Sequence record: PZ445448.1
Source: a phage
Length of the DNA: 64,000 nt
Reading direction: 5' to 3' (one strand)
The notes under the pieces: model-generated
The model's input: only the letters and a program-made list of their open reading frames with translations
Database searches by the model: none
Told to the model about the DNA's origin: nothing
Shown here: positions 4,920 through 61,521 of the stretch, piece by piece
Layout: each line of letters starts with the position of its first letter
Numbering within the stretch: position 1 is the first letter of the stretch
Made by a program: the position numbers and the translations under genes

Positions 4920-5234
4920 GTGGAGTTGGATTTGGCGGCATTGTACGGTATCTGCATGGGTACCGTTGTCCCGATCTGTGTATGGGCTTTCAACCAGTGG
5001 CACACCAAATGGAAAGGCATTTCCAAGAGGTTGGATGAACTGGAGAAAGACCTCATCTTAGTGAAAAACAGTATGGTTACAAAAGATAAACTTGATTCCG
5101 TTATCGAGACCCGGTTAAGTAAGCTAGAGGCCGATATTAACGACCTTAAGCAGGATGTCAGGACAGATGTCTCCGGTATCCGAGCTGATGTACAAAAGAT
5201 TTTGCACATGCTCGTAGAGCATAGTAAAAGGTAA
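4920..5234 (+). CDS. hypothetical protein, N-terminal hydrophobic segment plus coiled coil
   Basis: ORF beginning at GTG 4920 right after AAGAGGAGG; true start uncertain (GTG/TTG/ATG at 4956). Confidence 0.35.
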   Translation: MELDLAALYGICMGTVVPICVWAFNQWHTKWKGISKRLDELEKDLILVKNSMVTKDKLDSVIETRLSKLEADINDLKQDVRTDVSGIRADVQKILHMLVEHSKR

Positions 5235-5243
5235 ACAAAGGTC

Positions 5244-5277
5244 AGAACGGAAAGGACTCCGTTCTTGCATTTTGTTC
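5244..5277 (+). terminator. rho-independent terminator candidate
   Basis: Hairpin GAACGG-aaaggact-CCGTTC followed by TTGCATTTTGTT. Confidence 0.45.
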
Positions 5278-56408: not shown

Positions 56409-56543
56409 ATAAAAAGTGTTTTGGTACTGATTTTGGGGTTGACTTGTTCGGCCCCTTTTGCTATTCTTATTAAACGGGCGGCACTTGGGAACAGGGGGAG
56501 ACAATCACCAGGCCTGCCTGTCATATAAGAACTATAAAAACCG

Positions 56544-56572
56544 TTGACATCTGCCAGGGGGTGGGGTAACAT
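56544..56572 (+). promoter_or_regulatory. sigma70-type promoter (TTGACA-17-TAACAT)
   Basis: Hexamers at 56544-56549 and 56567-56572. Confidence 0.5.
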
Positions 56573-56626
56573 TTATCTTGAAGGGGCAAAGGTGCCCACA
56601 CAACAACCAGAAGAGAGGAAAACACT

Positions 56627-56899
56627 ATGTCAAGCTGGATTAATCAAGAAGTCGAATCACGTTTTAATGCTATTTGGGATCTCATCGAAAAAGAAGACGG
56701 CACATCAAGCCCCTACCTCAACAATTTGGAATTCCATTTTGTGGAAGCGATGAACGCAGAACATGATCACGAAGGTGGTGCGGACGAGTTCGCTAAAGGG
56801 TATGGCTTCAACAATGCCAACGAAATGATCGAGGCGGTTGTACTCCAGGCTGAGGAAGATTATCAATTAAAAACGCTTGAATTCTGCCGCCGTAAGTAA
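56627..56899 (+). CDS. small-gene block protein (90 aa), unknown function
   Basis: ATG after AAGAGAGGAAAACACT; leader hairpin GGGCA-aagg-TGCCC. Confidence 0.6.
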   Translation: MSSWINQEVESRFNAIWDLIEKEDGTSSPYLNNLEFHFVEAMNAEHDHEGGADEFAKGYGFNNANEMIEAVVLQAEEDYQLKTLEFCRRK

Positions 56900-56959
56900 T
56901 AAGATAATGACACGGGCCGGGAGGCCCACTAATCAGAACCACACAAAGAGGTAAACATC

Positions 56960-57223
56960 ATGAAACGTCTTGATCAGCTTAAACTAGTTCAGTACATGGC
57001 CTACAAAGTTCTTGAAGTCCAAAAAGGTAGCAAAAAAGAGGTTTGCGAGAAAGCATATAAGATCTTTACCCGTAAAAAAGATGATTGGATGTTACGCCAG
57101 ACCAAAAAAGCCGATATCCTGGGATACCTGGAAGAAGAGATCCGACTTGAAGAACAAGAAGAGATCCGCCGTAGTGAGGCAGATTATCAGGCAGCTTGGG
57201 AAAACTGGATGAGCAACAAATAA
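56960..57223 (+). CDS. small-gene block protein (87 aa), unknown function
   Basis: ATG after AAAGAGGTAAACATC; leader hairpin GGGCC-ggga-GGCCC. Confidence 0.6.
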   Translation: MKRLDQLKLVQYMAYKVLEVQKGSKKEVCEKAYKIFTRKKDDWMLRQTKKADILGYLEEEIRLEEQEEIRRSEADYQAAWENWMSNK

Positions 57224-57289
57224 TACAACAAGTTACATGGTCAGGGGCAATAAAGCCCCTTGATCACATAAAAATTATGCTATCCCTGG

Positions 57290-57318
57290 TTGACAGGGAT
57301 CGGCAGTTTTGCTATATT
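57290..57318 (+). promoter_or_regulatory. sigma70-type promoter (TTGACA-17-TATATT)
   Basis: Hexamers at 57290-57295 and 57313-57318. Confidence 0.55.
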
Positions 57319-57367
57319 CTTTTTTGAAGGGAAGTTGTAAGAAAATTAACTAAGAGGTAAAAACACC

Positions 57368-57787
57368 ATGAACATTAAATCTAATAATCCGGCATATAGC
57401 TTTGATAACGCTTTTTGTCACGGTCCGGCGGCGAAAGGATTCGAAATCGATGGTAAACTAATTATTGTCAATGTTGACGGGGAAGAGGTTGCAGTATATC
57501 CGGTGGCAGACGTAAAAAGCCGTTTACAATGCCGCATGGATGTTACCGCCTATCAGCTTGATCCGGTCCGCATAGTTGCCCTGGTCCTGGAAGAAGAAAT
57601 TAAAGCCATGCACCATAGCAACAGATTTATTGGTGACGCGCAGGATAATATGAAAGTATGCCGCCATAAAGTTAATGAAGTGCTTAAAGAGTACGGCTAT
57701 AAAGATCTTATGATCAAACGTGAGGAAAAATTCCGCTACCGTAACGACCTGGCAAATCGGATTTTTGAAATATACGAATCATTATAA
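57368..57787 (+). CDS. small-gene block protein (139 aa), unknown function
   Basis: ATG after CTAAGAGGTAAAAACACC; last gene of the block. Confidence 0.6.
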   Translation: MNIKSNNPAYSFDNAFCHGPAAKGFEIDGKLIIVNVDGEEVAVYPVADVKSRLQCRMDVTAYQLDPVRIVALVLEEEIKAMHHSNRFIGDAQDNMKVCRHKVNEVLKEYGYKDLMIKREEKFRYRNDLANRIFEIYESL

Positions 57788-57805
57788 TTTTTTAACTGAA
57801 TTATC

Positions 57806-57830
57806 AAGGGGCTTAGGCCCCTTTCTTTTT
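57806..57830 (+). terminator. rho-independent terminator closing the plus-strand small-gene block
   Basis: AAGGGGC-ttag-GCCCCTT followed by TCTTTTT. Confidence 0.55.
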
Positions 57831-58435
57831 GTCTGCTCTTCCTCCTACCACAAACGGCCCAGCCTGGCAAGTGGAATAATTGACTAGCCATCAATCCCAC
57901 ACACTGTACAAATATACATGGAAAATAACTATTGCATAATTTTTCATTGTGTGGTAGCAGGTCCATTTTTACCCGTTTTCTCTCTCAAAATTGCACGTAA
58001 TGCCGCTATTGCACAAAATTTAACCTGATGCACATCTTCAATATCTTGTCAACAACTAAAAATCTTTATAAGTCATACACTTACACACTCACAAAAGCGT
58101 GTTCTACGTGAAAAATCGAGTATAACTATAGCCGCCAGATCTCAGAATTTACGTACGCTCACCATTCTATAGTCTGCTAAGTATTTATTCCAACCATGGA
58201 ATAACGGAATAGTCAATACCTGCATAAAATAATTATTCGTGTAAACTGCATAACATAAATCAGCTCAGGTGTCAACATTTTTCGTAAACAGTCCGAAATT
58301 GTCACGGTGAGTTATCATAAACAGAGAAATATTTAGTCGTCTAATGTTTACTGTACATTACTATACTGACTGGAATCATTAGATGACTAAGAGAAAGATA
58401 AGAAATAATTAACAATACAATTATTTTATCTGTAA

Positions 58436-58632
58436 CAATAAGGCAACTATGCAAACGAATGGCATGGCGCGACGGAGTCGCGACATAATATAAAAGCAGT
58501 AACCATCACCCCCGTGATAGTTTGTCTGCAAACTATTAATCAGATCATAGTTGCCTTGTATTTAGTTAATCATGACATAACAAGCAAGGCAACTATAGAT
58601 CTTCTAATAGTTGCCCTGCTTTTATATTATGT
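58436..58632. repeat. nested palindromes: four copies of AAGGCAACTAT (two per orientation) inside an outer 15 bp inverted repeat
   Basis: AAGGCAACTAT at 58438 and 58586 (forward), ATAGTTGCC at 58544 and 58607 (reverse); outer arms ATAATATAAAAGCAG (58484) / CTGCTTTTATATTAT (58615). Confidence 0.5.
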
Positions 58633-58755
58633 CATAGAAACACCCGAAGGGGTGACCAAAGGTCACCTGGCATGGCCAGTGAAAGATTATTAACTTGTTA
58701 ATTGTTAACTTGCTAATTGTTTTCATGCAAACGAATGTCATGGCTTATCCTATCT

Positions 58756-58815
58756 GTGTAAACAGTCAAGGTGTAAACTATCCAGGCGTAAACAATCTAT
58801 ACGTGAACAGTGAAA
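58756..58815. repeat. four tandem 15 bp iterons (GYGTAAAC-type)
   Basis: GTGTAAACAGTCAAG / GTGTAAACTATCCAG / GCGTAAACAATCTAT / ACGTGAACAGTGAAA, head to tail. Confidence 0.5.
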
Positions 58816-59377
58816 CATGAAATAATAACAGTCGTTATTGTGTCGAAAGTGTATAAGGTGTCATAGTATGTCAGACAAGTTTTTCTCCTCTTTGTCAAGT
58901 GCTGCATGAAAAATTTACAAGCTTGTATGGTAGCATTTTTGCTGCCCTGTTTACATTCAGTTGTGTATGTATAACCCTTGTTGTGTGGGCGTTTAGACGT
59001 CTAGACGGTTGGAAGTCCGCAGGTTAATATCTAATCTATTGGCTGCTAACTATATCCCACACAAATAGTAAGAAATATAATTGTTATGTGCGTAAACAGT
59101 AACTCATGTTATCAATCCCTGTATGTATCGCCAGTGGTGCGCATAATGGGTATTATGTTAAATTGCCCGTAATGATAACTATTCTCACAATGATAGGTAT
59201 TCTCATTCACTCCCACAAGATAGGTTGCAAATGTTGTGCCACTGTGTGAACGGCCTCACCTATTAATTTGCCTCACTGCCTCGATATTTGAGAATTGTTA
59301 TAAGAATGAGAAGTATTCCCATTTCGTCCGCCTGGCAGCACTCCAGTCGCTACCGCTCATGACAGGGCAGAACTAGA

Positions 59378-59620
59378 CCCTCTTCAGATATTTCTGGCTG
59401 ACTCTTCAGGCCTGTGTGGGAAAAGCCAACCTCTCCGGCGGCGGGGAGGGGTTTGTCAGGAAAATTGCAGGTCAATTAAAAAATTTACGTGGTATATGAA
59501 GCGCTCTTCAGGTAAGGCATGTATTATGGGATGAAACCCTCTTCAGGCAATGATATTTGTGGGTGTGATATTTGCTGGAAAGCCAGATATGACGGGACTC
59601 CCGGCGGGGCAGGGGTAGTA
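59378..59620. repeat. degenerate tandem repeats with recurring CTCTTCAGG motif
   Basis: CTCTTCAG(G) at 59378, 59402, 59504, 59539 (also 59954 and 60601); related GC-rich units CTCCGGCGGCGGGGAGGGG and CTCCCGGCGGGGCAGGGG. Confidence 0.45.
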
Positions 59621-60311
59621 CAGACAGGGGAAATATGGAGGATGTAGTTGGGGGAGTTGATCAAACAGGTAGAGTATGGAATATGTTACAAGTATGTTAA
59701 ATATGGAGGGTGGATATCTGTAGGATTTATGTGTAAAATCAAAGACTTAAGTGGTGTTGTGGTATTTTCTATAAATAATTCAAGTTTAATAGGTAATATT
59801 TGTCTCTATCCGCTTTGTGTGGTAAACAAATTCAGATGGTGTTGGTTTACAAGTGTATACATAATATACAAATTAAAGATACAAGAAACCCCCCTCCCCC
59901 TTCGGCTACCATTCACCTTTTCCTCTGACTGGTACTTAAACACTTATTCAGACTCTTCAGGTTATCACCCATATATCATATGGCAGTGACTGGTGTCCTC
60001 CGGCCCCTCTTTCGTCACCCGTCCGCTTCGCCATGCTAATGCCATAGCCAATGGTTCGGTTGTTCACCCTGTTCACTCAGGTGTATCTCCATACCCCTTC
60101 AAACCGAAGAGAACAGAAAACCCGAATTACTCGGTAAAAGAAAAGAGAAGAACTTAATTTTATCAGGATAGGCAAGAATGTCAAGGCATGACTGCTCACT
60201 AAACAAGCAAACAGTCATGTGTGGGAGGTAAGTGATTGTGGTGGTAGGAAATTTAGTTGAAAGATGTGTTATAGGTGCTCCCAGCACTTTAGCCGGGTAG
60301 CTAATTGTGTG

Positions 60312-60527
60312 TCAGTCCAGTGGTTCATCACCTACTTCACTGAAATCAATGTTCATGGTCTCCTCCCAACCATCAATCTCAGCACCAGAGTAGAGATCTT
60401 TAGGACTTACTCCCAAAGCATCAGCAACAGAGTCCATATTTAACACCTCTGGCAGGTATGATTTATCGAATTCAAGGTAAATCAGGCCACGAGTATTGTC
60501 AGCTCCACCAAATATTTCTATCTTCAT
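60312..60527 (-). CDS. hypothetical acidic protein (71 aa)
   Basis: ATG after CAGAGGAGATTTC on the minus strand. Confidence 0.55.
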   Translation of the reverse strand: MKIEIFGGADNTRGLIYLEFDKSYLPEVLNMDSVADALGVSPKDLYSGAEIDGWEETMNIDFSEVGDEPLD

Positions 60528-60648
60528 GAAATCTCCTCTGGAAATGAGAGTGTGAACAGGGTTTTATACGTTCCGATGCACAGGAATTATGCACGTTTTC
60601 CTCTTCAGGCCATGCTTTAGCATGAGGAACCTGTGTGGGCTCGGTGCT

Positions 60649-60861
60649 TCATAGTCTACCACCCCTGAACTCTTCGTGCTCAGGCATAATAGAGAACCAG
60701 ATATCTACGATGTCTTCCCACGTTAGGTCATCAGCCTCAGGATCTACCTGGAGCAAAGATGGAGAATCTTCAGAATCGAAGTTTTCCTCTTGCACTGGCT
60801 CAGTCAAGGGACATATAGTCACTCCTTTGGATGTCTCTTCAGATGCATGCGTGTTTATCAT
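60649..60861 (-). CDS. hypothetical acidic protein (70 aa), uncertain
   Basis: Start set at ATG preceded by GGTGGAAC; the longer alternative-start ORF to 61062 has no support. Confidence 0.35.
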   Translation of the reverse strand: MINTHASEETSKGVTICPLTEPVQEENFDSEDSPSLLQVDPEADDLTWEDIVDIWFSIMPEHEEFRGGRL

Positions 60862-61221
60862 GTTCCACCCGTGAGTATTCCGGCAACAGCCGCTATGGAC
60901 GTAATGATCATCAGAATAACCACCAAAACCTCTGACAATGTTTTCATTGTGTATCCCATATTCTCCAAACGATGTGTGGATACTATCACTGGAGCGGCAA
61001 TGTGTCAACAGAAACGCCGCGAGGGTTTGGTTAAAATCCGAGCGTATGGTGATTTGGGTCAAAACGGACGTGCGTTCTCGCTACGCTCGAAATATAGAGT
61101 TGTTTGTAGGAAGCTCTTAAACGCTCTGTAACGAGATTATCTGTCCAAGGTATGCAATCGTGCACCAGATAAAGAAAAGGACGCCACAGAGCGTCCTAGG
61201 TGTCTTAAATTTGATATTTTG

Positions 61222-61521
61222 TTATACCCATGAGGGTTTATCAAGGTTGGAGTAGCTGAAAGGTGTCAAAAGGTGATTGTCAAAATCTCTCAAACTATCC
61301 AGATCTTTCTCCTCGTCCTGACACCATCTGTGCCTACATTTATTGTTGTAGTGCATAGAATGCATAGCGTTCTGCAACTTAACAGGTACAAGTGATTCAG
61401 GAGTAGATAGTATTGTTGGGTATGCCAGAACCACCTCAAACAGTGGAAACACATCGAAACTAAAGTCTACCTCTGCAGAGGTTGATGGCATGTAAGAGTA
61501 TTTAGCCGCCTTTGTAGACAT
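61222..61521 (-). CDS. hypothetical protein (99 aa)
   Basis: ATG after GTGAGGTGGATT. Confidence 0.5.
   Translation of the reverse strand: MSTKAAKYSYMPSTSAEVDFSFDVFPLFEVVLAYPTILSTPESLVPVKLQNAMHSMHYNNKCRHRWCQDEEKDLDSLRDFDNHLLTPFSYSNLDKPSWV

Follow-up and report, generated by a model that had tools for sequence, protein, structure and literature searches.

A probable concatemer-junction and genome-end module in a gene-free region of a Vequintavirus genome

Phages T7 and T3 carry a short exact repeat of 160-230 bp at both ends of a non-permuted genome, and one copy of the repeat is present at each concatemer junction. In T7 two arrays of short repeats, SRL and SRR, immediately flank the repeat. 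An inverted repeat near the junction has been proposed to give a hairpin intermediate in the duplication of the repeat, and transcription into the junction has been implicated in processing, with RNA polymerase pausing at the junction. Phage T5 has ~10-kb terminal repeats and a two-step DNA transfer, and a gene-free injection-stop region with direct and inverted repeats lies beside its terminal-repeat boundary. The terminal repeats and the concatemer junction of T7 and T3 are reportedly treated by Dunn and Studier in 1983, by Chung, Nardone and Hinkle in 1990, and by Fujisawa and Morita in 1997. Here we analyze the gene-free region at 57836-60311 of a phage DNA of 64,000 nucleotides (PZ445448.1; this whole stretch is called the window). 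The region is most probably the concatemer-junction and genome-end module of a Vequintavirus with fixed-end packaging of the T7 type.

The locus resembles the junction of T7 and T3 in having a terminal repeat (459 bp), arrays of short repeats flanking it, an inverted repeat near the junction and a promoter reading into the junction. It differs from T7 in several respects. It belongs to a myovirus of 135-140 kb whose promoters are of host type, conserved non-coding DNA extends for about 1 kb on each side, the palindrome is large and multi-branched with an outer stem of 18-21 bp, the genes at both genome ends are transcribed outward, and the cis sequences of T7 are not shared. The injection-stop region of T5 is similar in being a gene-free and repeat-rich stretch beside a terminal-repeat boundary, but nothing here suggests a two-step transfer.

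Terminal repeats have been published for several Vequintavirinae. The repeat of Gotham is 459 bp (PMC7471380), EdH4 and HdK5 have terminal redundancies of 458 bp (Korf et al., PMC6563267), and the Mydovirus KPP-1 has a repeat of 514 bp (PMC9862379). These three papers give the length of the repeat only, plus coordinates in the case of KPP-1. They make no link to the "non-coding" box of rV5 and leave the flanking arrays, the palindrome and the conserved block undescribed (PMC7471380, PMC6563267, PMC9862379). The rV5 paper draws the equivalent stretch, which separates the convergently transcribed genes 163 and 164, as a grey box with the label "non-coding", and its authors give this stretch no function (PMC3606486). 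In the literature beyond the rV5 paper we found no description of the non-coding region. The terminal repeat is already published for the genus; the surrounding cis-architecture, above all the palindrome and a near-invariant block, is undescribed.

The region 57836-60311 matches 121 phage records with 88-96% identity, nearly all of them Vequintavirus (rV5-like E. coli myophages), and judged by these matches the source phage is a Vequintavirus. An earlier reading of the DNA, made without database searches (the sequence-only reading), had described the region as gene-free and situated between convergent gene blocks. Both statements hold, and all careful annotations leave the region free of genes. 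The open reading frames (ORFs) inside are at most 113 aa long and without a PHROG family; a plus-strand gene ends at 57787, and a minus-strand gene occupies 60312-60527. Independent gene calls on metagenome contigs leave an equal gap of ~2.5 kb, and the annotators of the relatives have called differing tiny ORFs here or none at all. The same reading thought of a replication origin or a partition or packaging site. The packaging and genome-end part of that suggestion is strongly supported, with a homologue of a terminal repeat in the centre of the region, and the origin part has gained no specific support.

The central element is a direct terminal repeat (DTR) of 459 bp at 58874-59332. It is the orthologue of the Gotham repeat, to which it aligns without gaps at 95.4% identity and with identical junctions; the Gotham record has a 459-bp repeat_region annotated at both ends, 1-459 and 136567-137025. 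The left junction lies between 58873 and 58874, where ...TATGTCA is followed by GACAAGTTTTTCTCC (GACAAG...), and the right junction between 59332 and 59333, where ...CATTTCGTCCGCC is followed by TGGCAGCAC (...GTCCGCC, then TGGCAG...). HdK5 has an exact 459-bp copy at each end of its record with the junction bases as in the window. This copy begins GGCGGACG and finishes AAAAACTTGTC, and the adjoining bases, ...GTGCTGCCA before it and TGACAT... after it, are the reverse complements of the window bases flanking 59332 and 58874. At least eight records, coming from several laboratories, start or end exactly at the junctions: Gotham, HdK5, EdH4, YN3, ECP2309, ECP2303, Pr121LW and bov10K2 v2. The window holds a single copy of the DTR, as expected of a permuted or circularised assembly.

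Conservation was studied in a 6-kb alignment of the window and 14 relatives (15 genomes). In all 15 the DTR measures 458-460 bp, and the two junctions do not vary in sequence. Nowhere in the alignment are indels as frequent as just outside both junctions; apart from these variable zones the non-coding DNA is 92-98% identical and is conserved like the flanking genes. A repeat at both genome ends is present in the orthologues HdK5 and Gotham and is assigned to this isolate by homology. Sequence-specific ends are shared by the eight records, and the circular permutation that goes with headful (pac) packaging is not what the deposited genomes show, since they carry an exact repeat of fixed length, 459 bp, at both ends. 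Homology to relatives with determined ends establishes, at the level of sequence, the position, length and junctions of the DTR. Read-start pile-ups at the ends and about two-fold coverage over the repeat were reported for KPP-1 (PMC9862379), and such pile-ups and repeat coverage are implied for Gotham (PMC7471380). In the comparison with related phage genomes, a check proposed by the sequence-only reading, the DTR, the palindrome stems and the motif copies are kept and the number of iterons varies. The features of the region are as follows.

57806-57823, plus strand: intrinsic terminator which closes the rightward block, AAGGGGCTTAGGCCCCTT then a T-run (terminator scan; annotated terminator in Murica)
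57836-58432, no strand: AT-rich non-coding arm without ORF, GC ~34-39%
58433-58633, no strand: nested palindrome cluster (repeat finder families I3, I4, I10 and I19; fold of single-stranded DNA)
58449-58468 and 58725-58744, plus strand: 20-nt direct repeat ATGCAAACGAATG(G/T)CATGGC (family D7, 95% identical)
58641-58654, 58651-58667 and 58667-58679, no strand: three small dyads, CACCCGAAGGGGTG, GGTGACCaaaGGTCACC and CTGGCatgGCCAG (read from the sequence)
58686-58873, plus strand: hypervariable short-repeat zone adjoining the left junction (TRF; alignment indels)
58874-59332, no strand: DTR, 459 bp, single copy in the window (homology to the ends of relatives)
59352-59385, no strand: hypervariable indel zone outside the right junction (33-38-bp insertions in 7-12 of the 14 relatives)
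59380-59620, plus strand: oriented CTCTTCAG(G) cluster, copies at 59380, 59402, 59504 and 59539, within a diverged ~163-bp duplication
59885-60225, minus strand: ultra-conserved block of ~340 bp (alignment, promoter scan)

Inside the DTR there are three copies of a 17-18-bp repeat, AATGA(T/G)A(A/G)...TTC, at 59171, 59189 and 59305 (59171-59205 and 59305-59321). Similar units, AATGAGAAT and AATGATAA, occur in the repeat and in the palindrome of KPP-1 (KPP-1 5214-5267). An IMG/VR scan with a 26-mer from the DTR gave one contig only. We also looked at contig ends as evidence for termini. Two Logan short-read contigs end at most ~12 bp apart, just left of the ultra-conserved block where the DNA is AT-rich and variable; they stop at ~59843-59855, off the DTR junctions, and were set aside as uninformative. 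Strain variation or difficult sequence may be behind these ends. The assembly of I29 (ON286975.1, 842-1981) contains an exact 546-bp duplication equivalent to window ~59116-59678, joined via a 120-bp inverted piece. It was rejected as a terminal duplication; its position is not that of the repeat boundary, and most probably it arose in assembly, as an artefact near the genome end.

The left flank is dominated by the palindrome cluster, ~240 bp outside the left DTR junction. The sequence-only reading saw four copies of AAGGCAACTAT as nested inverted repeats inside an outer palindrome of 15 bp. Three of the copies are exact, at 58440 (+), 58547 (-) and 58586 (+), and the fourth, at 58607 (-), has one mismatch; the outer palindrome is present, but it is a perfect inverted repeat of 18 nt (58482-58499 and 58616-58633). 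When at most one mismatch is allowed, AAGGCAACTAT has 10 matches in the window against 1.4 expected. The outer stem surrounds a short hairpin (58501-58522) and a long one (~58526-58615) with AAGGCAACTAT arms, and the further copy at 58440 lies outside the stem. Folded as single-stranded DNA, 58425-58700 reaches -55.7 kcal/mol against -25.3 for shuffles (z = -7.9), and in this predicted fold the nested palindromes form a Y-shaped multi-hairpin. The stems are invariant in the 15 Vequintavirus genomes and substitutions fall in the loops. The apical loop carries a 33-nt insertion in one genome, and one shows a double change from A:T to G:C. The 20-nt direct repeat, of which both copies are kept in the relatives, brackets the outer-stem structure together with the small dyads. 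Two of these dyads, GGTGACC-aaa-GGTCACC (58651-58667) and CTGGC-atg-GCCAG (58667-58679), had been pointed out earlier and were found as described. The dyad segment 58641-58679 gives a terminator-like match on the minus strand and is deleted in 3 of the 14 relatives.

The inverted terminal repeats of parvoviruses form T- or Y-shaped hairpins which can fold back and prime DNA synthesis. The likeness to the palindrome is one of topology only, an outer stem around two internal palindromes. The element is here internal, ~240 bp from the genome end and in single copy, unlike that of the parvoviruses, and we know of no Rep-type nickase which could act on it.

From the small dyads to the left junction the DNA consists of short repeats: a ATTGTTAACTTGCTA tandem (58686-58721), the GT(A/G)AAC iterons (58756-58815) and TGTCAnAGTR 8-9-mers up to the cut site. 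Four head-to-tail iterons of 15 bp had been claimed. Three are good units and the fourth is degenerate and offset; TRF finds 2.8 copies of period 15 at 58756-58797 with 81% matches. Among the relatives the zone undergoes changes in copy number and indels of 23-62 bp; the distance from palindrome to DTR varies from 177 to 338 bp over the 15 genomes, and the number of TGTCAnAGTR units also differs between genomes. In other genera a single-copy homologue, CTTGACAGTTTACAC, is present.

To the right of the DTR the flank 59333-59400 measures 67-135 bp in the 15 genomes, and the CTCTTCAG motifs start ~48 bp past the junction, just beyond the variable zone 59352-59385. This 8-mer has seven copies in 59380-60842, all on the plus strand, and four in the other 62 kb, with 2.4 expected for the whole window; the copies beyond 59620 are at 59953, 60601 and 60835, and those of the cluster are kept in the 15 genomes. 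Six recurrences of a motif had been reported between 59378 and 60601. The motif does recur there, but CTCTTCAGG is exact five times (59402, 59504, 59539, 59953 and 60601), always on the plus strand, against 0.56 expected in the whole window. The degenerate repeats mentioned by the sequence-only reading proved to be a diverged duplication of ~163 bp, 59402-59460 against 59539-59620 (families D8 and D13). A GC-rich hairpin, CCTCTCC-N-GGGGAGGGG, lies at 59430-59451 and is followed by TTTGTC; in the window, in KPP-1 and in PVP-SE1 such a hairpin is found ~65-145 bp outside the equivalent junction. TGTGTGGGA and its complement CCCACACA recur in 57895-60640, which has 8 of the 31 matches in the window with at most one mismatch and 4 of the 5 exact ones. 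They are often found 2-25 nt from a CTCTTCAGG copy, and CCACACAA pairs likewise with CTGAAG[AT]G in other genera.

Still further right, 59900-60199 has a column identity of 98.6-99.6% per 100-bp window, above that of the flanking genes. The block around it contains a near-consensus sigma-70 promoter on the minus strand: TTGACA at 60184-60179, a 16-nt spacer with TG, and TAAAAT at 60162-60157. This promoter scores 11/12, reads toward the DTR and is invariant in the 15 genomes. At its end the block has a C6TC5 tract (59889-59900), and a transcript would be G-rich there. It folds as RNA no better than shuffles on either strand (z = -1.0 and -0.1), and we therefore do not claim a structured RNA; Rfam 15 gave no match at E<=1 on either strand of 56500-61500. 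The conservation of the block demands some explanation all the same. About 260 nt downstream of the promoter the transcript would contain the segment GGGGGAGGGGGG, followed by a U-rich stretch and AT-rich DNA. This segment resembles the G-rich elements which form primers or R-loops in other systems, the mitochondrial CSB II and RNA II of ColE1. G-runs on the plus strand are present at 59437-59451 and 59602-59615.

The layout is not confined to Vequintavirus. The published 514-bp repeat of KPP-1 sits in the equivalent convergent gene-poor gap, KP12 and DP start or end at the boundary of that repeat, and PVP-SE1 has a gene-free gap of 2.27 kb at the equivalent place. Across Mydovirus and Seunavirus the non-coding region of KPP-1 can be recognised with 70-77% identity. 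A profile of the Vequintavirus DTR matched other genera only within their repeat (E = 7e-6 to 2e-4). Profiles were also made for the arms, for the palindrome and for the ultra-conserved block, and these gave no match in other genera; in sequence the DTR is thus the only part detectably homologous across genera. The end sequences of KPP-1 resemble those of the window: TGCTA before the cut and GACGGACA after it correspond to TGCCA and GGCGGACG, and at the other end CTTGACAAGGAGAGAGAATTGTGTT corresponds to CTTGACAAAGAGGAGAAAAACTTGTC.

In all eight genomes examined one long perfect inverted repeat is found at the equivalent relative position, with arms of 17-21 nt; the two arms are separated by 116-217 nt and are located 240-310 bp past the same end of the DTR. 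The element of KPP-1 has a fold z of -9.6. When the seven elements from outside Vequintavirus are aligned they share an outer stem and three inner hairpins, 54 pairs with 99.7% of the cells paired. Six pairs of the Mydovirus and Seunavirus element show compensatory changes. For covariation the alignment scores 0.118 and shuffles 0.054, with 0 of 500 shuffles reaching the score of the alignment, and slid controls give zero. The outer stem reads GACATAATATAAAAGCAG in Vequintavirus and GACACAATAACACGGGAG in the others, both arms being perfect in each, and it is therefore the pairing that is maintained rather than the sequence. The strict length of the DTR against indel-rich flanks and a layout common to three genera are thus established from the aligned genomes.

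The oriented motif has its counterpart as well. Its reverse complement, CTGAAG[AT]G, is found in Mydovirus and Seunavirus on the same side of the repeat, as is a GC-rich hairpin, and in other genera CTGAAG[AT]G is almost always on the strand of the block running toward the repeat start, often behind CCACACAA. KPP-1 and PVP-SE1 have promoter-like sites with TG that are directed into the repeat. At one promoter-like site in the alignment GTAAACTGTC (PVP-SE1, 4MG) alternates with CTGAAGAGTC (KPP-1, GAP31, EC152) in the same columns, a hint that iteron and CTCTTCAG may be two forms of one site, facing each other across the repeat.

If the region is a T7-type junction, the virion DNA would be linear and non-permuted with 58874-59332 at each end, beginning GGCGGACG and ending AACTTGTC. 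Head-to-tail concatemers would contain one copy of the repeat per junction, between two outward-transcribed gene blocks. The terminase would cut sequence-specifically between 58873 and 58874 and between 59332 and 59333, and the repeat would be duplicated to give two copies per packaged genome as in T7 and T3. The GTRAAC iterons, the TGTCA units and the CTCTTCAG motifs may be sites of recognition or positioning, used by the packaging machinery or by another phage DNA-binding protein. The palindrome may extrude as a hairpin or cruciform and take part in processing or duplicating the repeat, perhaps by acting as a hairpin primer or a structural landmark, and transcription from the conserved promoter into the junction may help to open it. 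As a tentative extension, which we find conceivable, the palindrome could represent an undescribed class of cis-acting DNA structure for the duplication or processing of the DTR, or for a hairpin- or transcription-primed start of replication, in large fixed-end myoviruses; the promoter, the CTCTTCAG motifs and the GTAAAC sites could then be parts of one junction-processing machine.

Several points weigh against the genome-end assignment or against parts of it. The ends of this phage are assigned by homology only, and the roles given to the iterons, to CTCTTCAG, to the palindrome and to the promoter are ones that we infer. Searches of the flanking proteins with Pfam and PHROG revealed neither a binding protein nor a small terminase subunit. 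In other genera CTGAAG[AT]G also occurs at intergenic spots of the neighbouring gene block, and such positions suit a packaging signal no better than a signal in transcription or at the RNA level. A merged iteron and CTCTTCAG motif, STRAASWGTC, is not enriched over the whole window: it has 5 matches where 2.1 are expected, a count reached by 6 of 100 shuffles. Because the merged pattern is not significant over the window, the suggestion of one common site is kept as an idea only. Two reports using PhageTerm call Vequintavirus circularly permuted or headful-packaged (PMC8407724; PMC13211470). These calls conflict with the exact repeats in the deposited genomes; the revised bov10K2 record now begins at the repeat boundary despite them.

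A replication origin, which could coexist with genome ends, would account for some of the same features. The iterons would bind an initiator and the AT-rich DNA would unwind with assistance from the palindromes, or replication would be primed by transcription from 60184-60157. The region is like iteron origins (plasmid oriV, lambda ori) in having a few direct repeats, here with 15-bp spacing, beside dyads and AT-rich DNA, with GC 34-37% over 58000-58800. The palindrome is strongly structured, the cumulative GC skew turns locally, and the invariant promoter with its ultra-conserved downstream block ending in C6TC5 beside AT-rich DNA would suit a primed start. Iteron origins have a stable repeat array; here there are 2.8 copies at 81%, the 15 genomes carry 1 to 5 GTRAAC cores with indels, and both number and sequence of the iterons vary between genomes more than 90% identical. 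The array also adjoins the repeat junction and thus the cut site, its 15-bp spacing is not helical-phase, and no cognate initiator was found. Nothing encoded by the flanking ORFs can be recognised as Rep-like or DnaA-like; ten flanking proteins have no Pfam match, and the two PHROG families of the flanking genes are of unknown function. A novel initiator is possible. In rV5 the skew changes, including the one here (104425-105475), coincide with switches in transcription direction, and an origin could not be defined (PMC3606486). We regard an origin at this place as improbable.

A locus for regulation of transcription or at the RNA level is another reading: the promoter at 60184-60157 would drive a non-coding RNA from the ultra-conserved block, and CTCTTCAGG, which is CCTGAAGAG on the leftward coding strand, would be a phage-specific promoter, an operator or an RNA-processing signal and not a packaging signal. 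The 11/12 match to sigma-70 with TG, the ~99% conservation over ~340 bp and the strict orientation of the motif are consistent with this. So are the position of the motif in the spacer of a promoter-like site in KPP-1, GAP31 and EC152, its occurrence behind CCACACAA and at intergenic places of the adjacent block in several genera, and a CATAAT box 9-10 nt after the motif at 60601 and 59539 (minus-strand site 59550-59523). Most copies of the motif, however, have no usable -10 box at a fixed distance, the putative transcript folds no better than shuffles and matches no Rfam family at E<=1, and we found no transcriptome data for these phages in the literature. As an account of the region it is possible but rather doubtful. 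The missing ORFs, the many indels in two zones and the disagreement between annotators could also suggest a spacer without function or decayed genes, with repeats arising by chance or by replication slippage. This is contradicted by the conservation pattern: the arms are conserved as much as the neighbouring genes or more, the indels are confined to two narrow zones adjoining the repeat, and other genera retain the layout and, with compensatory changes, the palindrome structure. It is hardly credible.

The surroundings of the module can be described briefly. The left arm, 57836-58432, is almost indel-free with a column identity of 88-97% per 100-bp window, 92-97% from 57900, and holds one GTAAACAGTC copy (58284) plus CCCACACA and TGTGTGG motifs. 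The 113-aa ORF in the region was rejected as a gene; it is broken by indels in relatives. A hydrophobic peptide of 20 aa behind a good ribosome-binding site at ~59880 was dropped because its stretch varies among the relatives. Both flanking genes match PHROG families of unknown function, phrog_12277 and phrog_12108. The ten flanking proteins are without a Pfam domain and therefore offer no candidate binder or initiator. The window lists 12 ORFs of at least 350 aa, and ARAGORN found no tRNA or tmRNA in it. Of the 14 relatives, 3 lack the gene that ends the rightward block (57368-57787, 139 aa, phrog_12277) or have it replaced, and about half are without the segment 56100-56400; the gene content beside the ends is therefore mosaic. 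The region is also 90-96% identical to nineteen GenBank records that bear the name 'Campylobacter phage' (MG0656xx series, host C. jejuni); from the sequences this looks like a host mislabel or a contamination of the preparations with coliphage.

Few phages are isolated on E. coli, Salmonella and Klebsiella as often as Vequintaviruses and their relatives, which also find use in biocontrol and in therapy cocktails. To our knowledge the formation of T7-style fixed ends is known in detail only for small podoviruses, and the region described here defines candidate cis signals for such ends in a large myovirus. Most deposited genomes have been opened arbitrarily. The ends placed here would be the natural start point for annotation and would lead to a correct design of ends in genome rebooting and engineering. 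The conserved palindrome and the near-invariant block of ~340 bp are concrete targets for experiments.

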